Assembly: GCF_000027125.1 (NCBI RefSeq)
Contig: NC_017626.1
Length of the DNA stretch: 64,000 nt
Source: Escherichia coli 042
Lineage (GTDB): Bacteria > Pseudomonadota > Gammaproteobacteria > Enterobacterales > Enterobacteriaceae
Direction: 5' to 3' (one strand)
The position numbers and the translations under genes are program-made. Positions 45,007 to 63,046 of the stretch are shown here, piece after piece (the stretch's first letter is position 1; each line of letters begins with the position of its first letter). The notes beneath the pieces are model-generated. The model had not been told where the DNA came from, did not search any database, and worked only from the letters and a program-made list of their open reading frames with translations.

Positions 45007-45486
45007 CTACTTAATGCACTGAGTGCGGATATACTCCTGTGCCCCTTCCAGTTGCATCTGCATCGTCATCAGCCGCTCTCTGAGGGTGAAATAATCCCGT
45101 TCAGCGGTGTCTTCCAGTCGGGGGCTGGTTGCATTATCCACGCCGGAGGCGGTGGTGGCTTCACGCACTGACTGACAGACTGCTTTGATGTGCAACCGAC
45201 GACGACCAGCGGCAACATCAGCGCGCAGAGTTTCATTTTCAGCTTTCGCATTGGCTAATTCTCTCGAGTACTTTGCATCGAGCGCAGCAACATCACGCTG
45301 ACGCTGCTGCATGTCAGCGATGGTGGCGATCGCCAGCTTCAGCTCACTGACTTTTTTATCACGCTGTTCTTTGTAGGCGATGGCGTTATCACGGTAATGA
45401 TTGACCGCCCACGACAGGCAGACGATGATGCAGATAACCAGAGCATAAATAATCGCGGCGACTCTGCTCACTGATCTATCCCCCAA
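45007..45486 (-). CDS. Rz: i-spanin Rz
   Basis: 159-aa ORF, N-terminal TM segment and coiled coil, downstream of endolysin. Confidence 0.8.
45069..45251 (-). CDS. Rz1: o-spanin Rz1 (lipoprotein embedded in Rz, +1 frame)
   Basis: 60-aa ORF with lipobox VVGC and Pro-rich region, fully inside Rz. Confidence 0.7.
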
Positions 45487-46001
45487 CAGGCTAATGCGCT
45501 TTCCTGGTCACGACGAATAACCTGTCCATAGCAGTTATTTGAACGTATGCGGCAATCGCGCCCACCATCTATTATCCACCAGCGAATCGCCTCGCATGCG
45601 CCCTTACGATCACCGGCATTCAGCCGCTTATAAAACGTCGACGGAAAACACTTACCGGGGCCAATGTTATAGGGACAAAATGACGCGATACCCGCTTTTT
45701 GTGGTTCAGTCAGTGGTACTTTAATATTGCGCTCCACCCATGCCAGCGCCTTATCACGCTCAATGGCGTTGACCTGGTCGCATTTTTCCTTCGACAGTTT
45801 CATACCGGGAAAAACGGGTTTTCCATCCACCATCGTGGCACCCCGACAGATGGTCCAGATGCCGGACCCATCGCGGTATGCCGTTGTGTGGTTACCTTCT
45901 TTTTCATCCAGAAACTGGTCGAGAATATCAGGCGCGGGCGCACCGACGGCAATCAGTGCCAGAACGGCAGCCGACAGGCCGTATCTGATTTTTGCGTTCA
46001 T
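45468..46001 (-). CDS. R: SAR-endolysin (lysozyme R, T4-lysozyme-like)
   Basis: 177-aa ORF with N-terminal signal-anchor-release segment and lysozyme region. Confidence 0.85.
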
Positions 46002-47727: not shown

Positions 47728-48174
47728 GGAGTTTACTCACATCTGACAAAATCAATATAAACAGCCCCTCCGGAGAGGGGCTGGAGAGTGGCGCTATGTG
47801 CCATTGCATGGTGCCGGGTGCCTCCCGGTGAATTCAGTACCAGCACCTGAATCCGCGATTATCCCATATACCTACTCGCTGATTGCCCCTCCGCACAGGG
47901 GGATTCACCATGCCAGTTTCTTTTAACAAACTCCCCGCAAACCAGACAACAGTCAACCGCCTGAATTGTGAAGTATTTAAAAATTTCTCCCGCTAACTGA
48001 TACCCGGCTAACAGTCTGGCGTTTTCTTTTTCAGCAACGGGAAAGCAACAACCACCACACCCGCCACCAGCACACCGTCAGCCAGCACTGACATTATCCG
48101 GCTGCTGCAATGCCATTCACAAAAACAGTAAGCAATCACTTTTTACCGTAACAGGTGATAATCCAGATATGTAT

Positions 48175-48636: not shown

Positions 48637-48713
48637 TATGGCGCGCTGTACTGGATTCGAACCAGTGACCGATTGCTTAGAAGGCAATTGCTCTGTCCGG
48701 CTGAGCTAACAAC
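48637..48713 (-). tRNA. tRNA-Arg (anticodon UCU)
   Basis: Manually folded cloverleaf: acceptor GCGTTGT/ACAGCGC, anticodon stem ATTGC/GCAAT, loop CTTCTAA, T-loop GGTTCGAATCC, encoded CCA. Confidence 0.8.
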
Positions 48714-48815
48714 GCTGAATACCGATAATGGACCGCCATCGGGGACCCGCCCCCGCACCAACAACCCTGTTATCGTGTCGTCTGCTCTTCCTGATAAGCT
48801 AATGGCGGTTTGTGA

Positions 48816-48891
48816 TGGTGGCCCTTGCTGGATTTGAACCAGCGACCTGGCGATTATGAGTCGCTCGCTCTCACCACTGAGCTAAAGGGCC
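48816..48891 (-). tRNA. tRNA with CAU anticodon (Ile2/Met type)
   Basis: Acceptor GGCCCTT/AAGGGCC, anticodon loop CTCATAA, T-loop GGTTCAAATCC, encoded CCA. Confidence 0.8.
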
Positions 48892-49034: not shown

Positions 49035-49856
49035 TTACCTAGTTACCTTTTTTAACTGCCGCTCAGCCCATGCTTCTTCAATATCAAACCGGGTCACCAG
49101 CGCATCATAGAATTTCTTAACTGTTTTTTCCCATGACGCGCGTGTTATCTGGTTTGTCACCTCGCATATAGCATTAAATACCTCCGTTGATGGTAGTCTT
49201 TCATAGCCACGACCACCACAACGCTGGCAGTCTCTGATAACAGGCATACCACGTTTTACCGACTCTTCACGGTGAATGGCGACACCACGCCCACGGCAAT
49301 CCTTACAGGCGGTGGAAACCTCACCCCTTCCGCCACACTCCGGACAGGCAACTTTTACCACCTCCCTGACTTTTTTCCATTCTTCCCAGTAAGACGGATA
49401 CACACCTTTCGTACACTTTGCCCATACCGGCGGCTTACCATCCGGATACTGGACCTTGTTTGTAAAAACTACGCTTTCAATAAATTTTTCCCCATAGCAA
49501 CAAGGGCACTGCTTTTTACTCGCTGCGCTGCGGGCATAATCCTCAAAAGCGTACGAAGCCATAATGCGCATCACTACCGGTTTTATTTCTGCCGGAAGTT
49601 TTCTCAACGCCGCCACACGATCGCACCGACTGAGTGCATAATCTGCCAGTAATTCTGTTGCCCGCGCCCTGTCATTCATACTGATGCCCATTTTCCCCAG
49701 GAACGCAGAAAAACCCATCTCAGCCCGATTCTGTGTCATGCCCTGCGCGGCCATCACATCAGTGATACTCAGCGCATCTTTTGACGTTGAGGCCGATGCA
49801 TCGGTCAGGCCAGGGGATTTTGGGGAGTAGTATTTCGGTAAATCTTCCAGTTTCAT
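49035..49856 (-). CDS. putative late-gene antiterminator (Q-like, zinc-finger rich)
   Basis: 273-aa ORF with four CxxC motifs, immediately upstream of the tRNAs and lysis genes. Confidence 0.5.
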   Translation of the reverse strand: MKLEDLPKYYSPKSPGLTDASASTSKDALSITDVMAAQGMTQNRAEMGFSAFLGKMGISMNDRARATELLADYALSRCDRVAALRKLPAEIKPVVMRIMASYAFEDYARSAASKKQCPCCYGEKFIESVVFTNKVQYPDGKPPVWAKCTKGVYPSYWEEWKKVREVVKVACPECGGRGEVSTACKDCRGRGVAIHREESVKRGMPVIRDCQRCGGRGYERLPSTEVFNAICEVTNQITRASWEKTVKKFYDALVTRFDIEEAWAERQLKKVTR

Positions 49857-49870
49857 TTTTTGACCTGCTC

Positions 49871-50227
49871 TTAATGCATTATGGGGTAAATCTTCACCCC
49901 CAGACGTCCACCAGATACTGGCTGACCACGAACGATATTGATTTCATCAAACTGCTCATCGTCCATTAACACTCCCGCATGCGTCAGCGCATCCAGCGGT
50001 GCTTTCAGGATATTGTCCAGGTCGCGACGACGCTTATCCGGTGGCTCTGCAATCACCTTTATCGCCAGCCTTCCGGACAGGCTTAATTTCAGCCGCTGCT
50101 GGCGAACAATAAGCGCCACAGCCCGGCGATAACGCTTTCCCTCCTCCGAGATAAAATATGTGCTGCCACGGCGTCGCCAGTAAGTGTTCACCGTCGGCGG
50201 GTAAGGTAAAACCAAATCTATGAGCAT
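49871..50227 (-). CDS. rusA: Holliday-junction resolvase RusA
   Basis: 118-aa ORF with RusA-like sequence. Confidence 0.8.
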   Translation of the reverse strand: MLIDLVLPYPPTVNTYWRRRGSTYFISEEGKRYRRAVALIVRQQRLKLSLSGRLAIKVIAEPPDKRRRDLDNILKAPLDALTHAGVLMDDEQFDEINIVRGQPVSGGRLGVKIYPIMH

Positions 50228-50239
50228 CAGTCACCTCTT

Positions 50240-51289
50240 TTACCCAAGCACGCCAGTTGCAAAGGCGTGATCAAGAAAACGAAAAATTAAATCAACCTGA
50301 GAACCATGCTTTTCTTCGAACGCCAGCGGATCCGCATGAAGCTCGTTGTGATGCTCCCGACACAGCGGTAGCGTGAAAATATCGTGAGATTTTGTCCCCA
50401 TTCCGCCCTGACCATGACCAATCAGGTGATGGGGATCGTCGGCTGGCTTACCACAACACGCACACGGCTGTGTCTTCACCCAGCGTGTGTATTTCTCGTT
50501 AACCCAGCGGCGACGTTTAGGTCGTTTCATGAAAGATTCCGGAGACTCAGGATCAACGGCAATGCTGACCACCGTCTTTTCCTGTGGTGGGTTCTGTTGC
50601 TGGTGGGCGTGAGGCAGCGGCGCAAGATTTTTTGTGCGCTGTTTCAGTATGCTGGTGGCGGTCTGCTCTCCCGGTACGATGTCGCTTTCACGGTACATTG
50701 AGCGGATTTTTTCCGCACGCAACCCCAGCGAACGACGTAATACCGCTTCCGGTAGCGCGTCCGCCACCTGATTGCGGACCGCCCACCAGGATAATTCAGC
50801 CAGAGATAATTCACGCTCCTGCGTACCGCTTATTGCGTGACCGATGACGTCAATCATCCATGCTGACAGGTTTTGATGAGCAAGTTGCTCGAGTGATTCG
50901 GATGTCTGGTCACGCAGCTGGTTGTCGCAGTGCCAGCACAACACCATTGCGCCGGTACCATAACGGTGAATGACGGTTTCGCTGTGATGATAATCGCCGT
51001 GTGGCCACTGGCAGGATTTAATATGGCGCAACAGCCAGTCAGACAATGCACCAGCACCACCAGCAGCACGAATCACCCGTGCGTTACTGAAAAACGGCAG
51101 CAATGTTTTGTCTTCCACCAGCGGCTGGCGAGCGGCAGGAACGACCCCGGACGGCAGATTACGCATGCTTTTCGGTTCCGGCTCCACCAGTAACCGGGTA
51201 TTGTGGAATACCGGCATGGATTCACGGCCCGGCTTAACGATCACCAGCCCGAGTTCCGGTACCAGAACAGGTCGAAGTAATACCCGCAC
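50240..51289 (-). CDS. DUF968-type phage protein (YdfU-like)
   Basis: 349-aa ORF with C-terminal Cys/His cluster; family assignment from memory. Confidence 0.6.
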   Translation of the reverse strand: MRVLLRPVLVPELGLVIVKPGRESMPVFHNTRLLVEPEPKSMRNLPSGVVPAARQPLVEDKTLLPFFSNARVIRAAGGAGALSDWLLRHIKSCQWPHGDYHHSETVIHRYGTGAMVLCWHCDNQLRDQTSESLEQLAHQNLSAWMIDVIGHAISGTQERELSLAELSWWAVRNQVADALPEAVLRRSLGLRAEKIRSMYRESDIVPGEQTATSILKQRTKNLAPLPHAHQQQNPPQEKTVVSIAVDPESPESFMKRPKRRRWVNEKYTRWVKTQPCACCGKPADDPHHLIGHGQGGMGTKSHDIFTLPLCREHHNELHADPLAFEEKHGSQVDLIFRFLDHAFATGVLG

Positions 51290-51865: not shown

Positions 51866-52258
51866 CTACTGCCCTGTTTTAACGAAGTTTTTAAAGGAAA
51901 CAACTGCCTGATAGGGGTTTGGTTGACAGCCAAACATATTATCGCAAAAAGGCTTGATGAAAATTCTTGAGGATCCATCTTCATTTGGCATTTTACTCAC
52001 TTGATAAGCGAGGAATGGACTATTTGGAGAGGGATTATAAGTGGAAATTAGCGTGTCTGTCGCCGTTTGAATTTTCCATGAGGAATTATTAGCCAACCAG
52101 AATTGCGCTCGTTTCCAATAAAAGTCACATTGCTTTTCATCATTACATGTTAGTGGCTTCATTGCTTCTGCTTTCAACGCTGGATCGACCTTTGCTGCAC
52201 ACCCTCCCAACATTACTGTTGCAATCATTACACCTGCGACTAAAACAAGTTTCTTCAT
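51866..52258 (-). CDS. putative lipoprotein (moron)
   Basis: 130-aa ORF with signal peptide and lipobox LGGC; AT-rich. Confidence 0.6.
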   Translation of the reverse strand: MKKLVLVAGVMIATVMLGGCAAKVDPALKAEAMKPLTCNDEKQCDFYWKRAQFWLANNSSWKIQTATDTLISTYNPSPNSPFLAYQVSKMPNEDGSSRIFIKPFCDNMFGCQPNPYQAVVSFKNFVKTGQ

Positions 52259-52401
52259 CTCCCTGCCCCATCAATAAAAGTTCGGTTCTCTAATAACTAG
52301 AGTTAATCAACGGAAAAAACGCCGAAGCGGGTTAAGTGCGGGTGCGTTGAGGATGCCTGACACATCAGAGGTGGCGAGGGATTTCTCCCCCGCCAGGTCT
52401 C

Positions 52402-52557
52402 TTACTCCTCAGGTTCGTAAGCTGTGAAGACAGCGACCTCCGTCTGGCCGGTTCGGATTCGTACCTCGCAGAGGTCTTTCCTCGTTACCAGTGCCGTCAC
52501 AATGACGGTTAAACAGATGACGATCAGGGCGATTAGCATCGCCTTTTGCTGCTTCAT
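52402..52557 (-). CDS. hok: Hok/Gef-family type I toxin
   Basis: 51-aa segment MKQQKAMLIALIVICLTVIVTALVTRKDLCEVRIRTGQTEVAVFTAYEPEE matches Hok-family toxins; the longer 70-aa ORF is the overlapping mok-like frame. Confidence 0.85.
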   Translation of the reverse strand: MKQQKAMLIALIVICLTVIVTALVTRKDLCEVRIRTGQTEVAVFTAYEPEE

Positions 52558-52848
52558 AGCCTGCTTCTCCTTGCCTTTCGGCGCGTAAGAGGCTAACCTA
52601 GATTTGCCGTTCATAGATTGAGCCTCAGATTAATGTTAAGCGTCTTGCAGGACGCGTAATGTTAACTGGGGCTTTTCTCTATCTGCCTTTTGGTGTTCAT
52701 GCCTGAGACAGATAGCCTCAAGCACCCGCTGCAATTCTACTTAACTCTCCTTTTCCCGCAAACCGTTTTTATCCCCAGCGGCAAATCGAATACACCACCA
52801 GCGCCACCGCCATCGCAATTCCTACCGTTGTTAATGCTTCAGGCCAGC

Positions 52849-53751
52849 TCATTGATTCACCTCCTGCGGCGGTTCTGGTAGCGGCATCCAGTGTGACGGT
52901 TTCCACGACGCACCAGGAATTATCCACCCATCATTAGCGTCAGGATGCCCGGGGATGTAAGTAGCCCATTTCATTCGCCAGTCACCTTTCCTGTCAAACT
53001 CCACGGCAACAAGAACGGCTGTTTTGGTATTCGGCATTCGCTCACTACAGCTTATCCAACCATCCGGAGTTGCCGGAGAGTTGCCCGATAGTGCATTCTG
53101 CTCCAGTGATGCTTTTACAAACCACGCTGCCTGAACTATAACGCCATGAATCCAGCGCAAATCAGCATCGCGATCTTTCTTTTTCATCTTTTCGCCACTT
53201 AAGGCCTTGCTTATGTGGCTGCGTACCAGGTCTTCATGTAATTCCTTCGCCTCCTCAATGGTGAAACCACCAGGCAGAAGAGCCGGAGTTACCGGAGAGC
53301 TGGTTGACGCTTCCGGGATTTCCCGAAAATTATTGGTTGACGAATTCTTGCTTTCCCGAAAGTTTCCGGACTGAAGCATGGCGGTGCGGCAGGCGTTCCA
53401 TATTTCGGCAGCAATATCGCGCTCGCTATCGGTTAATTTGTACGTGGAAACATAGCCAGAGAGCATTTCTACGTTTTCCGGAGTTGCTTCTTCCGGCACT
53501 ACCGGCGCTGGCGGGGCGATGCGTCCAAGCAACTTATTTACCTCTTTCGCCATCGCGTCATATTTATCTAAATGGCGATTAGCTTCTAAGCAGACTCGGC
53601 GCATCTGATCTGAGTTAACTCGTTTAACTGGATCTGCTTCCAGCGATGCCAGCGCAATCCGTGCCAGTTCCATTTGTTCACCACGGGTAAGCCCGTTTTC
53701 AAGCGGATTTTTAATGAACAATTCAATACGTTCTTTGGTAATAGTGGTCAT
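52849..53751 (-). CDS. hypothetical phage protein with DUF551-like C-terminus
   Basis: 300-aa ORF; C-terminal Trp/Pro-rich ...HWMPLPEPP. Confidence 0.5.
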   Translation of the reverse strand: MTTITKERIELFIKNPLENGLTRGEQMELARIALASLEADPVKRVNSDQMRRVCLEANRHLDKYDAMAKEVNKLLGRIAPPAPVVPEEATPENVEMLSGYVSTYKLTDSERDIAAEIWNACRTAMLQSGNFRESKNSSTNNFREIPEASTSSPVTPALLPGGFTIEEAKELHEDLVRSHISKALSGEKMKKKDRDADLRWIHGVIVQAAWFVKASLEQNALSGNSPATPDGWISCSERMPNTKTAVLVAVEFDRKGDWRMKWATYIPGHPDANDGWIIPGASWKPSHWMPLPEPPQEVNQ

Positions 53752-56374: not shown

Positions 56375-57352
56375 TTACCCCCTGAAGCCCGGCGGAATTT
56401 CAGTGTCCGGTTCAGAAATGTGATTCACGCAACGCTGCGCAGGCGAACGCCCCAGGCGGATAACCAGTTCATCCCATTTTTCCCGGAGTTTTGCCGGACT
56501 CATGATGTTTTTTACCCAGAACGAATCCCGCTGGAGACGCCCAAACATTTCACAAATTTGTCTGTGAGTTCTGCCATCCAGCATCCGCATTGTGCGAACG
56601 TCATTGGCCCATGCTGTCCAGTTGGGTTCTTTCGGTCTAGTGATCTCGCCATCATCGCTGGCCGCCTGCTCGTAAAGACTCACGATTCGTCCCCAGATCC
56701 ACTGTGCGCACACCAAATCTTCCTGACTTCCCCACTGGCGTTTTTTCGCACTGAACACAACCGCGTCAGGGTGTCGGGTTAAAAAATCCTGTTCAGCCGT
56801 CTGCGGGTCCGGTTGCGAAGCGTCCGGACAAGAAGATCTTTTATCTGACGGATCAGGTTTTAATACTGACGGATCGGGGTCAATCATCGCCCCCCTAATC
56901 GGCAGTTTTTTATCAACGGTTGATCCATCAAAATTTGACGGGTCAACCGTTGAGGGGTCAATATTTGACGGGTCAACTGTTAACGGGTCATTTTTTGCCG
57001 GGCTAATTTTTCTTTTCGGTTTATATGACTCACGCGCCGCCGCCGCAGCTGCTTCGAGTTTTTCCACATTAAGCCGATAGATATTGCTTACATTACGCCC
57101 ACCGACCTTACGCTCTTCCTTCGTCAGCCAGCCCTCTTTCGCCAGTTCTGCAATAGCCGATTTCACTGTGGATTCACTTCTTGCACCGATCTGACGCCGG
57201 ATAGTTTCAATGGCAGGCCATGACACGCCCTCGTCATTGCTGTAGTCTGCAAGACGGGCCATAACCGCCACCCTGGATAAGATCATGCCGGTGAAGGCGC
57301 ACCCTTCCCAGACAAGACCATGAAGCTTGCTGCTCATAAAACCCCCGAACAC
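56375..57352 (-). CDS. phage replication initiation protein (YdaU/O-like, N-terminal winged helix)
   Basis: 325-aa ORF with N-terminal HTH, Pro/Asp-rich linker repeats and C-terminal domain. Confidence 0.55.
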   Translation of the reverse strand: MFGGFMSSKLHGLVWEGCAFTGMILSRVAVMARLADYSNDEGVSWPAIETIRRQIGARSESTVKSAIAELAKEGWLTKEERKVGGRNVSNIYRLNVEKLEAAAAAARESYKPKRKISPAKNDPLTVDPSNIDPSTVDPSNFDGSTVDKKLPIRGAMIDPDPSVLKPDPSDKRSSCPDASQPDPQTAEQDFLTRHPDAVVFSAKKRQWGSQEDLVCAQWIWGRIVSLYEQAASDDGEITRPKEPNWTAWANDVRTMRMLDGRTHRQICEMFGRLQRDSFWVKNIMSPAKLREKWDELVIRLGRSPAQRCVNHISEPDTEIPPGFRG

Positions 57353-58102: not shown

Positions 58103-58741
58103 ATGAGCAAGCAAACTATATCTGAACGCATAACCCAACGTATGCATGCGCTAAACCTGAAAGGCAAAGACCTTGTCAATGGCACTGGCGCATCAAAAGG
58201 CTCCGTAAGTCAATGGATGAACGGTGGAGGAGCGCCGTCCTCGCGTTACATAAGTTCCCTGGCAAAAATATTGAAAGTAAACGAAAATTGGCTTCTTAAT
58301 GGAGGAGAGTTAAATACAGGTGATTCGCTTGATCTATCTTTACCGCCGATAAAAACGGTTCCGCTACTATCACTTCAGCAGGCAGCAAGCTGGAGTGATT
58401 ATATGAAAAATTCCTCAATAACCTCTTGTGTGCAGCTTGTCGGAGAAATCCCGGTCAATACCTTTGCAGTTGTTCTAGAGAGTGACAGTATGTCAACATC
58501 TGGTGGGGGAGTTTCCATCCCAAATGGTTCAACAGTTTTTGTTGATCCCGATCGAACCGTACAACCAGGAAATATTGTCCTTGCCTTACCCAAAGGGACC
58601 ACAACACCTGTCATTCGTAAACTGGAGATAGAAGGGCCGGATATTCTTTTAGTCCCCACGAATCCTCGCTACCCTTCAATTATGCTGGATGATCTATCTT
58701 GCATATTGGGCGTATGCTTTAAAATTCAACAAGATATTTAA
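58103..58741 (+). CDS. CI-like repressor (XRE HTH plus S24 LexA-like peptidase domain)
   Basis: 212-aa ORF divergent from the cro-like gene. Confidence 0.8.
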   Translation: MSKQTISERITQRMHALNLKGKDLVNGTGASKGSVSQWMNGGGAPSSRYISSLAKILKVNENWLLNGGELNTGDSLDLSLPPIKTVPLLSLQQAASWSDYMKNSSITSCVQLVGEIPVNTFAVVLESDSMSTSGGGVSIPNGSTVFVDPDRTVQPGNIVLALPKGTTTPVIRKLEIEGPDILLVPTNPRYPSIMLDDLSCILGVCFKIQQDI

Positions 58742-59907: not shown

Positions 59908-59960
59908 TTTCTGGTGACGTTTGGCGGTATCAGTTTTACTCCGTGACTGCTCTGCCGCCC
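59908..59960 (+). ncRNA. dicF: DicF small regulatory RNA
   Basis: 53-nt sequence TTTCTGGTGACGTTTGGCGGTATCAGTTTTACTCCGTGACTGCTCTGCCGCCC followed by T-run terminator, upstream of dicB. Confidence 0.8.
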
Positions 59961-60604: not shown

Positions 60605-63046
60605 ATGAGCACTGATAAAGAAGAATTTGCACTATATTGCGAAGCAAAAAATGACAAAGTAAGAAAACGCCTGGGAATTAAAGGTGGTTTTTACTGGACT
60701 ACAGCAAAAAAATTATCTGTTGCAATCTCCCGCTGCATTACCGCAATGGATGACAACGATTATGATGAAGACGACTTTAAAAAACCCGTCCGCGTCAATT
60801 TGCCCGTTGTTGACGACCTTCCGCCAGAAGGCGTGTTTGATACTGAATTCTGCAACCGCTATGAAAAAGGCGGGAAAGATGGCATCACAATGACATTTAT
60901 CGGCCCTTCCCCCTCTGTTCAGGACAAACCAGCCAGCACTGACAATACCAACATCAACGGCGAAGACATGACTGAGATTGAGGAGAGCATGCTTCTGCCT
61001 GTCTCCGGTCAGGAACTGCCCATTCGTTGGCTTGCTCAACACGGCAGCGAAAAACCAGTAACGCACGTTTCACGCGACGAACTCCAGGCATTACACATTG
61101 CACGGGCTGAAGAACTACCGGCTGTTACTGCCCTGGCTATTTCGCATAAAACCAGTCTGCTCGACTCGCTGGAGATTCGCGACCTCCACAAACTGGTTCG
61201 TGACACTGACAAAGTTTTCCCTAATCCTGGTAATTCAGACCTGGGACTAATAACTGCTTTTTTCGAAGCATACCTGGACGCTGACTACACTGATCGGGGT
61301 CTGCTGACAAAAGAGTGGATGAAAGGAAATCGTGTTTCACGCATCACCCGCACGGCTTCCGGTGCTAATGCTGGCGGTGGGAACAAAACCGATCGCAATC
61401 CGAATTTAGTACACACCCTCGACACACTGGATGTGGAGATTGCAGCAGCCACACTTCCGATGGATTTTAATATTTATGAAATTCCGGGCAGCATTTATCG
61501 TCGCGCAAAAGAAGTAGTCCTGAACAAAGAAAGTCCGTTCAAAGAATGGTCCGCAGCACTTCGTGCAACCCCGGGTATTCTGGACTATTCCCGCGCCGCT
61601 ATTTTTGCACTTATCCGAAGCGCACACCCTGAATTTTATCACTACCCGGGACGCCTTCAGGGGTATATCAACGCCTATTTGACGGAAACTGATCACGAGA
61701 ACCCCAGCAAGGAAACTCTCACAGCTGCCCGGCATACGCCGGAAAAAGATATCCTGGAAGAAATTAACCGCGAGGTGGTTACTGAGCGTGAAACAGAAGA
61801 AGAAAAACCACAACCATCTGACGCAATGGCAGGTGAACAGGCAACAACTGAAACAATGGAACCGGATACAACTGAACATGGCCAGAACGCGCAGTCGCTG
61901 GATGCTCAGTCGCAGGTGAGTTCCGCTAACCAAGTAAAAGTCACCGCTGACGAAGTAAACAAAATTATGCAGGCAGCCAATATCAGCCAGCCTGACGCCG
62001 ATAAGTTACTTGCTGTATCGCGTGGTGAATTTGTTGAGGGGATTAGCGACCCTAATGATCCGAAATGGGTCAAGGGGATCCAGACTCGCGATTCTGTGAA
62101 CCAGAACCAGCATGAATCGGAACGGAACGACCAAAAAGCGGAACAAAACAGCCCAAATGCGTTACAAAACGAGCCAGAAACGAAACAATCCGAACCAGTA
62201 GCGCAACAGGAACCGGAAAAAGTCTGCACCGCCTGCGGTCAGAGCGGTGGCGGCAACTGCCCTGATTGTGGCGCGGTGATGGGCGACGCAACATACCAGG
62301 AAACATTCGATGAAGAGAATCAGGTTGAAGTTCAGGAAAATGATCCGGAGGAAATGGAAGGCGCTGAACATCCACACAAGGAGAACCCTGGCGGCAATCA
62401 GCATCACGCCAGCGATAATAAAACTGGCGAGACGGCAGATCGCTCAATTAAGGTGAACGGTCATCACGAAATCACATCCACCAGCAGGACGTGTGACCAT
62501 CTAATGATCGACCTTGAAACCATGGGAAAAAATCCTGATGCCCCGATCATCTCAATAGGTGCAATATTTTTCGATCCGCAAACCGGAGATATGGGACCGG
62601 AATTTAGTAAGACTATCGATCTGGAAACTGCTGGCGGAGTCATTGATCGGGACACCATTAAATGGTGGCTTAAGCAATCACGCGAAGCGCAATCTGCCAT
62701 TATGACCGATGAAATCCCGTTAGATGATGCACTGTTACAATTGCGGGAATTTATCGACGAAAACTCCGGTGAATTTTTTGTTCAGGTCTGGGGAAATGGA
62801 GCCAACTTCGACAACACGATTTTGCGCCGTTCATACGAACGGCAGGGGATCCCCTGCCCGTGGCGTTACTACAACGATCGCGATGTACGCACAATCGTTG
62901 AGCTGGGGAAAGCCATAGACTTCGATGCCAGAACGGCTATTCCATTCGAAGGTGAGCGCCATAATGCACTTGATGACGCTCGTTACCAGGCAAAATACGT
63001 TTCAGCTATCTGGCAAAAACTGATCCCGAGTCAGGCTGATTTTTAA
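60605..63046 (+). CDS. putative exonuclease (C-terminal DEDD-type 3'-5' exonuclease domain, central Zn-ribbon)
   Basis: 813-aa ORF; C-terminal ...DLETMG...WGNGANFD...HNALDDA... motifs. Confidence 0.55.

Follow-up and report, generated by a model that had tools for sequence, protein, structure and literature searches.

The window, which is the whole stretch of 64,000 nucleotides of Escherichia coli 042 DNA that was analysed, very probably carries a hok/mok/sok locus of the hokD/hokW subgroup, a type I toxin-antitoxin module that is complete and follows the canonical mechanism. Its carrier is a lambdoid E. coli prophage of the Qin/DicF type, in which the module occupies the early-right (replication-to-Q) region. 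A sequence-only reading of the same DNA had already proposed a Hok-family type I toxin module within a prophage at positions 52402-52614. The family assignment is borne out by a 51-aa peptide identical to HokD, a match to the Pfam family HOK_GEF (E=3e-23) and a match to the Rfam family RF01794 (111 bits), and the location by the presence of genes encoding a Q antiterminator, RusA, an O-like replication protein, a CI-like repressor, an endolysin and the DicF RNA. The proposed coordinates correspond to the coding part, but the regulatory RNA elements reach further on both sides, so that the whole module spans ~52314-52763 (Table 1).

The element is a standard, previously described prophage module of the hokD/hokW type. 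It is already known, since such loci are common in genomes and phages, hokW-sokW has been characterized and hok genes have been surveyed in prophages. As hokD is annotated by PGAP in thousands of E. coli genomes, the locus has little weight as a discovery. Its value is one of annotation: the window contains the full regulatory version of the textbook K-12 hokD (relF), and the antisense sok gene and the leader elements, which are absent from the annotation of the matching genome records, should be added to them.

Reading frames and prophage surroundings

The list of open reading frames of the window includes a minus-strand ORF of 70 codons starting with ATG (52402-52614). An internal ATG at 52557 opens a 51-aa peptide, MKQQKAMLIALIVICLTVIVTALVTRKDLCEVRIRTGQTEVAVFTAYEPEE, encoded on the same strand by 52402-52557. 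The 70-aa product matches the Pfam family HOK_GEF (PF01848) with E=3e-23 and 81.6 bits (cut-off 22), the match covering residues 25-66 of the product and the full profile (1-42). The 51-aa peptide is identical to HokD (RelF; WP_000813254.1), which is annotated in a K-12 derivative, in E. coli TUM9757 and in other E. coli, and it shares 47 of its 51 residues with HokW. These similarities point to membership of the Hok/Gef family far beyond chance. Two NCBIfam models remained below their cut-offs: NF007279 for the Hok subfamily (48.5 bits, cut-off 73) and NF007290 for the HokA equivalog (40.2 bits, cut-off 89). These models represent the R1-type and HokA branches, and the protein encoded here belongs to the HokD branch and is so named by PGAP. 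HokD has been used as a positive control for toxicity (bioRxiv 10.1101/2025.08.07.668861) and HokW has been located in the inner membrane (PMC8621323).

The 213-nt mok-like ORF is also present in phages VT2-Sakai and PPompW, where it bears the annotation MokW or gef. The distance from the mok start to the hok start is 57 nt here, so that both share one frame and mok is an N-terminal extension of Hok. In-frame mok genes were also found in hokW, in PPompW and in one IncFII hok variant when frames were compared across the family. With an offset of 58 nt, mok lies in the +1 frame in canonical R1 (70 codons) and in P1-like loci (68 codons). An out-of-frame mok, as in R1, was the layout expected first; it is that of the canonical R1 and P1-like loci and not that of the window. 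The proposal made from the sequence alone, a 51-aa Hok embedded in a longer mok-like frame with the usual layout, thus stands as to the embedding (70 codons, preceded by a GAGG Shine-Dalgarno sequence), and the layout departs from the usual one in the frame. More generally, the mok frame is not fixed within the family (52402-52614 of the window compared with loci L085, L086 and L091). The +1 frame across hok is also free of stop codons in the window.

The tetranucleotide UACG at Hok codon 47 (Tyr; 52416-52419) is invariant in the family alignment, where it forms part of UACGAA. The mRNAs of hokC, hokD and hokE are reported to undergo A-to-I editing by TadA, with a Tyr to Cys change at such UACG sites (bioRxiv 10.1101/2025.08.07.668861).

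The neighbours of the module are lambdoid prophage genes in reverse orientation (Table 1). The DicF antisense RNA was found at full length, and its position adjoining the gene of the CI-like repressor marks a Qin-type immunity region; in the nearly identical region of E. coli TUM9757, the same genes are annotated together with dicB and ydfABC, which flank the position of DicF. The module lies between the replication/ead-like genes and Q, on the same strand as them, at the position held by relB-relE-hokD in the Qin prophage of K-12. The STnc100 RNA and two tRNA genes are located between the Q antiterminator gene and the lysis genes. In Stx phages, the Q-to-lysis interval is a slot for tRNAs and stx genes. 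No ORF of at least 273 aa is listed in this interval of the window and stx2A, whose product is about 319 aa long, therefore appears to be absent.

Directly upstream of the module, a small hydrophobic ORF ends just before the hok promoter, its ATG overlapping the stop codon of the DUF551 gene (ATGA). A start homologous to that of this ORF, ATGACCTGGCCTGAAGC, lies within primer YO-432, which was used in the cloning of hokW-sokW. Directly downstream of hok, a 130-aa ORF encodes a product with a lipoprotein-like signal (…VMLGGC) that matches phrog_16082 (unknown function) and did not match any Pfam, NCBIfam or PADLOC model. The gene found at this position varies, being rem in K-12 and PPompW and a gene of the YgiW/YdeI family in Sp5. 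Among the 60 phage contigs with enough flanking sequence, the nearest ORF of 100 aa or more has the same orientation as hok in 47 cases on the upstream side and in 58 on the downstream side, and a scan of 52200-52900 found no terminator-like site between hok and the upstream genes. Because of this co-orientation and of the lack of a separating terminator-like site, read-through of the early operon across the module, head-on to sok, is plausible.

Table 1. Coordinates of the module elements and of neighbouring features in the window (approximate where marked ~)
Feature	Position	Strand	Basis or remark
Putative hok promoter -35, TTTGCG	52757..52762	-	Sequence reading; weak consensus match, 17 nt upstream of -10; inferred
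Putative hok promoter -10, TAGAAT	52734..52739	-	6 nt before mRNA start; position conserved in family
Predicted full-length hok mRNA, ~410 nt, 5' end GGGUGCUUGAGG	52316..52727	-	Rfam RF01794 start, R1-type alignment and fold
tac (translational activator), mRNA nt 1-12	52716..52727	-	Pairs with fbi (full-length fold) or ucb (3'-shortened fold)
ucb, anti-SD box AAGCCCC, mRNA nt 54-60	52668..52674	-	Pairs with mok SD (full-length) or tac (truncated)
mok Shine-Dalgarno GAGG, mRNA nt 102-105	52623..52626	-	Sequence reading; 8 nt before mok ATG; homologous to R1 GAGG
dcb box AGCCUC, mRNA nt 134-139	52589..52594	-	Pairs with mok SD region only in 3'-shortened fold
mok-like ORF, 70 codons, in frame with hok (MNGKSRLASYAPKGKEKQA + Hok)	52402..52614	-	ORF list; homologues annotated MokW/gef
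hok Shine-Dalgarno GGAG	52566..52569	-	Direct sequence reading; 8 nt before hok ATG; present in K-12 hokD too
hok (hokD-type) toxin ORF, 51 aa	52402..52557	-	HokD identity and Pfam HOK_GEF
fbi (fold-back inhibition), CCUCAACGCACCC	52340..52352	-	Pairing with tac; conserved in relatives
Short hairpin and U6, weak intrinsic terminator of hok mRNA, CCCGCUUCGGCGUUUUUU	52316..52330	-	Fold and family alignment
sok promoter -35, TTGCCT	52571..52576	+	Homologous to R1 TTGCGC and P1-like TTGACC; identical in hokW
sok promoter -10, TAACCT	52594..52599	+	17-nt spacer from -35; identical to hexamer deduced (primer YO-421) to be destroyed in 'pro-less' sokW mutant
Predicted Sok RNA, ~72-78 nt, ends approximate	~52604..52680	+	Fold; sokW probe position
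Hypervariable 12-nt patch (mok codons 2-5, Sok 5' tail, sok start region)	52600..52611	.	Diversity scan
Endolysin	45468-46001		
STnc100 sRNA	47753-47942	-	Rfam 132 bits
tRNA-Arg(tct) and tRNA-Met(cat)	48639-48891	-	
Q antiterminator	49035-49856		
RusA	49871-50227		
DUF968/HNH protein	50240-51289		
130-aa ORF	51866-52258	-	phrog_16082
Small hydrophobic ORF, MSWPEALTTVGIAMAVALVVYSICRWG	52769-52852	-	ATG overlaps DUF551 stop
DUF551 protein	52849-53751		
O-like replication initiator	56375-57352		
CI-like repressor	58103-58741		
DicF antisense sRNA	59909-59960	+	Rfam 76.7 bits, full length
Large exonuclease	60605-63046		

The predicted hok mRNA, Sok RNA and RNA switch

Generic consensus scans of 52200-52900 called neither a sigma-70 promoter nor a terminator. 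As this sigma-70 scan was negative, both promoters of the module, those of hok and sok, rest on homology. Across the family alignment, the -10 hexamer of hok reads TAGAAT, TAGGAT, TACAAT, TATAAT or TATGAT. The start of the mRNA was set at 52727 by an R1-type alignment, in which the 5' end is homologous to +1 of the R1 hok mRNA. The R1 reference sequence used is 100% identical over 450 nt to records of the plasmid collection, and its numbering agrees with the G4, C5, T6, A70 and G105/A106 of PMC9841398. In about 60 unique phage-borne copies, homology typically runs from 52747 to ~52314-52320, i.e. from promoter to terminator. The terminator has the form CCCGC-UUCG-GCG+U6 with a 3-bp stem, a variant shared with E. 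coli TUM9757, whereas K-12 and most relatives have CCCGC-UUCG-GCGGG+U5 with a 5-bp stem. The 3-bp stem could change the 3' end of the hok mRNA.

The Rfam family RF01794 ('sok') matches 52552-52727 over the full model (1-157) with 111.1 bits (gathering threshold 59) and E=2e-24. The match is on the hok-sense strand, the model starting with tac at GGGUGCUUGAG and finishing at the hok AUG. Since it spans the region from tac to the hok AUG, the model represents the hok mRNA leader containing the sok gene and not the Sok strand. The strand of an RF01794 match should therefore not be read as that of the antitoxin RNA.

Sok itself would be transcribed in the opposite direction from a promoter whose two hexamers are identical to those of sokW, the spacer differing at a single base. 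The counterparts of its -10 hexamer are TATCCT in R1 and TAATCT in P1-like loci. A promoter mutant of sokW, made with primer YO-421, lost antitoxin activity (Takada et al., PMC8621323). Alignment of this primer with the hokW sequence suggests that it changes exactly TAACCT(A). The predicted Sok consists of a single-stranded 5' tail over the mok start codon, a long hairpin and then a U-rich tail (-33 kcal/mol, z = -5.5), and the northern probe YO-592 used for sokW (PMC8621323) corresponds to 52603-52632 of the window. R1 Sok is 64 nt long with an 11-nt 5' tail (PMC1635323), and its architecture of tail and hairpin is matched by the predicted RNA. A search by eye for a YUNR U-turn motif in the predicted target loop gave nothing consistent.

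The 412-nt RNA from 52727 to 52316 has a minimum free energy of -161 kcal/mol (z = -5.5 compared with shuffles). In this full-length fold, tac and fbi form 12 bp with one bulge and pair probabilities of 0.97-1.0, a duplex equalled by only 1 of 2000 shuffled 3'UTRs; the AGCCCC of ucb (nt 55-60) covers the GAGG of the mok Shine-Dalgarno sequence, and the hok Shine-Dalgarno sequence is paired as well. Without the last 40 nt, the minimum free energy fold has tac paired with ucb, the mok Shine-Dalgarno region paired with dcb and the hok Shine-Dalgarno sequence free. On their own, the first 40 nt fold into a hairpin that pairs tac with the sequence immediately downstream. R1 hok mRNA adopts conformations described as metastable, closed and open (PMC9841398, PMC1635323), and the three folds predicted here correspond to these.

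The boxes involved are strongly conserved. Nineteen diverse loci were aligned, among them P1-like, PPompW, Enterobacter IncY and R1-type copies; in this alignment tac is nearly invariant, and the switch helices are 94-96% paired (96% for tac/fbi), compared with 30-68% when the partners are slid by 1-3 columns. For dcb, five of the six pairs are invariant in the family alignment (A3). A first protein-based search of IMG/VR gave loci 94-99% identical in protein, which are too close for an analysis of covariation, and more distant loci were therefore added singly. No covariation was detected in the tac/fbi, ucb/SD, tac/ucb and SD/dcb helices of the 19 loci, because these boxes are nearly invariant; conservation and the slid-partner controls are thus the only backing of the switch helices. 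The 5' hairpin (columns 15/63 and 21/57) and that of the 3'UTR do show compensatory changes, and in R1 the pairing of the ends is kept with other bases (GGCGCUU with AAGCGCC). The antisense Sok promoter and RNA, to which the sequence-only reading had pointed as the partner of the toxin, were found to be present and homologous to those of the validated sokW; the fbi/tac fold-back is predicted with a pair probability of ~1 and is conserved, and the intact toxin ORF encodes a peptide identical to HokD.

The functioning of the module can be pictured in the following way from its homology with R1 hok/sok and Sp5 hokW-sokW. The weak hok promoter would yield a stable mRNA of ~410 nt, whose 5' end (tac) would be clamped to the 3' box fbi while ucb hides the ribosome-binding site of mok, so that the full-length mRNA would be neither translated nor bound by Sok. 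Slow trimming of the 3' end would then remove fbi, tac would move to ucb, and the mok start region would be presented again in a hairpin; translation of mok would open the way to that of hok. As long as the short-lived Sok is made from the promoter inside the mok-hok leader, its 5' tail would pair with the mok start, blocking translation and triggering cleavage of the duplex. Once Sok synthesis stops, the 51-aa membrane peptide would be made and the inner membrane would be depolarised. The reading frames, their homologies, that of the promoters and both RNA conformations predicted above come from the window itself; 3' trimming, Sok instability, duplex cleavage and killing would be expected in this strain by analogy. 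In R1, the mRNA is known to be processed slowly at its 3' end, Sok to be unstable and the duplex to be cleaved by RNase III (PMC1635323), and sokW is partly dependent on RNase III and Hfq (PMC8621323).

The weakened terminator stem and the weak consensus matches of both promoters would also fit a domesticated or decaying locus, intact in sequence yet functionally silent, that neither kills nor stabilises. K-12 offers a truncated hokD and relatives interrupted by IS elements, and the intact chromosomal loci hokA, hokB and hokC are cited in bioRxiv 10.1101/2025.08.07.668861 as giving neither post-segregational killing nor activation by rifampicin; because of these reports, the activity of a killer module should not be assumed. 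A silent locus is nevertheless improbable: all the elements are intact and conserved in thousands of genomes and in active phages, and hokW-sokW, 92% identical, demonstrably works as a toxin-antitoxin pair and influences the release of phages (PMC8621323).

Biological role and the variable Sok tail

For a complete module acting by the canonical mechanism, the most likely role, by analogy with hokW, is a release of the toxin when prophage induction shuts off Sok, which would aid lysis and phage release. The sequence-only reading had suggested maintenance or abortive infection; hokW-sokW, the one nearly identical prophage copy with experimental data, points instead to this aid to lysis. It was found that, upon mitomycin C treatment, sokW RNA disappears and HokW reaches the inner membrane in a RecA-dependent manner, and that deletion halves phage release (PMC8621323). 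Indirect evidence ranks this aid to lysis ahead of prophage retention, followed by defence against other phages and finally by the lack of any role.

The same data on hokW, by favouring a role linked to induction (PMC8621323), speak against an addiction module that would retain the prophage, although this is the classical function of R1 hok/sok (PMC1635323, PMC9841398). Integrated prophages are, moreover, rarely lost by segregation, and the chromosomal loci cited as tested in bioRxiv 10.1101/2025.08.07.668861 failed to give post-segregational killing. The enrichment of hok in prophages, about four-fold (same survey), and the annotation of the PPompW copy as a 'phage maintenance protein' are consistent with retention, a role held here to be unlikely.

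Defence by abortive infection, in which a superinfecting lytic phage would shut off host transcription, thereby depleting Sok and allowing Hok to kill early, is rated lower still. Such a reading draws on R1 hok/sok, for which decreases of 42% in T4 plating and of ~85% in plaque size are attributed to Pecota and Wood (1996), as related in PMC8621323 and PMC10305079, but this effect was seen with a high-copy plasmid and not with a single prophage copy. In addition, neither the Mok/Hok product nor either of the neighbouring genes is matched by the models of PADLOC-DB, and hok was not enriched beside defence systems in the survey (bioRxiv 10.1101/2025.08.07.668861).

The sole aspect of the module that is possibly worth further work is an allelic patch at the 5' tail of Sok. 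These 12 nt, the most diverse stretch of that length in the mRNA, have a nucleotide diversity (pi) of 0.227 compared with 0.036 overall, i.e. ~6x, as computed on 55 unique sequences at least 93% identical. A pattern scan that left the patch unconstrained revealed at least 17 alleles among 120 phage contigs, the backbone being otherwise more than 93% identical. The comparison with R1 suggests that about 8 of the 12 nt belong to the Sok 5' tail that makes the first contact with the target. The patch may define discrete specificity alleles, in which case the Sok of each prophage would neutralise only its own hok mRNA, and it is a possible handle on cross-talk between the multiple hok/sok copies present in many E. 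coli. Separately, as the module commonly runs in the direction of its flanking phage ORFs, early phage transcription may collide with the sok promoter at induction, which would explain the RecA-dependent disappearance of sokW RNA. Taken jointly, these two proposals are tentative, and doubtful rather than probable.

Avoidance of a shared Sok-tail allele by co-resident prophage copies was considered and rejected. The patch alleles differ in six of nine genome pairs and are shared in the three others, two of the nine pairs being biased by the way the loci were collected. As about 82% of pairs would differ by chance, according to our own estimate from the allele frequencies, six of nine does not exceed the chance expectation and there is no evidence of allele exclusion.

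Distribution and relationships with known loci

Of 5426 complete E. coli genomes, 2447 contain the locus in full, with a coverage of at least 80%. If matches of any length are counted, the number of genomes rises to 4946, each with a median of 2 matching places and a maximum of 10. Plasmids (797 records) and phages (110 records) carry the locus too, the phages including VT2-Sakai, Stx phages of the 933W type, P1-like phages and PPompW. A survey reported hok in 3852 prophages and 2501 phages, with a four-fold enrichment in prophages (bioRxiv 10.1101/2025.08.07.668861).

The archetype, hok/mok/sok (parB) of plasmid R1, agrees with the module of the window in the order of elements, in the tac/fbi and ucb/SD/dcb logic and in where the sok promoter lies; its mRNA is likewise ~400 nt long and its coding region contains the conserved UACGAA. 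It differs by a nucleotide identity of only ~65%, by a strong terminator hairpin, by a mok of 70 codons in the +1 frame instead of in frame with hok, and by its plasmid location with demonstrated post-segregational killing. The protein identity between HokW and R1 Hok is reported to be 44% (PMC8621323).

The chromosomal hokC/mokC (gef) locus is 82% identical over the coding part and has the same mRNA 5' end, GGGTGCTTGAGG, and the ucb AGCCCC. The copy examined is not borne by a prophage and is devoid of fbi, an IS4-like element lying directly after its coding region. An IncHI1B plasmid hokD copy and a chromosomal hokC copy (L087 and L089) are both interrupted by the IS4-like IS421 at one and the same point past the coding region, with loss of fbi.

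The closest characterized relative is hokW-sokW of Sakai prophage 5 (Sp5, the Stx2 phage VT2-Sakai), shown by experiment to be a toxin-antitoxin system of type I (Takada et al. 2021, PMC8621323), with 92% nucleotide identity over 93% of the locus. Both have an in-frame mok of 70 codons, the tac, ucb, dcb and fbi boxes do not differ between them, nor do the -35 and -10 hexamers of sok, and both lie in a lambdoid prophage with a DUF551 gene upstream. They differ at 7 of the 12 nt that follow the mok ATG (the Sok 5' tail) and at the C-terminus of Hok (TAYEPEE in the window, VDYESEK in HokW), and the sequences after fbi, including the terminator, are unrelated. Their positions also differ, the VT2-Sakai locus being found beside genes encoding Ant, DksA-like, ead-like and LPD5-domain proteins and that of the window between the replication genes and Q.

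In K-12, hokD (relF) is the third gene of the relBE operon of the Qin prophage. Its 51-aa protein is identical to that of the window, the prophage neighbourhood is the same (DicF/dicB, the DUF968 gene and Q), and the two nucleotide sequences are 97.7% identical between a point 15 nt before the hok ATG and the end of the stretch formed by fbi and the terminator. In K-12, relE takes the place of all that precedes the hok Shine-Dalgarno sequence, including the hok promoter, tac, ucb, sok and the mok start, whereas the window has the complete ancestral layout without relBE. As K-12 matches only from 15 nt upstream of the ATG, the window has the locus in its complete form, and K-12 hokD is what remains of it after truncation at the 5' end.
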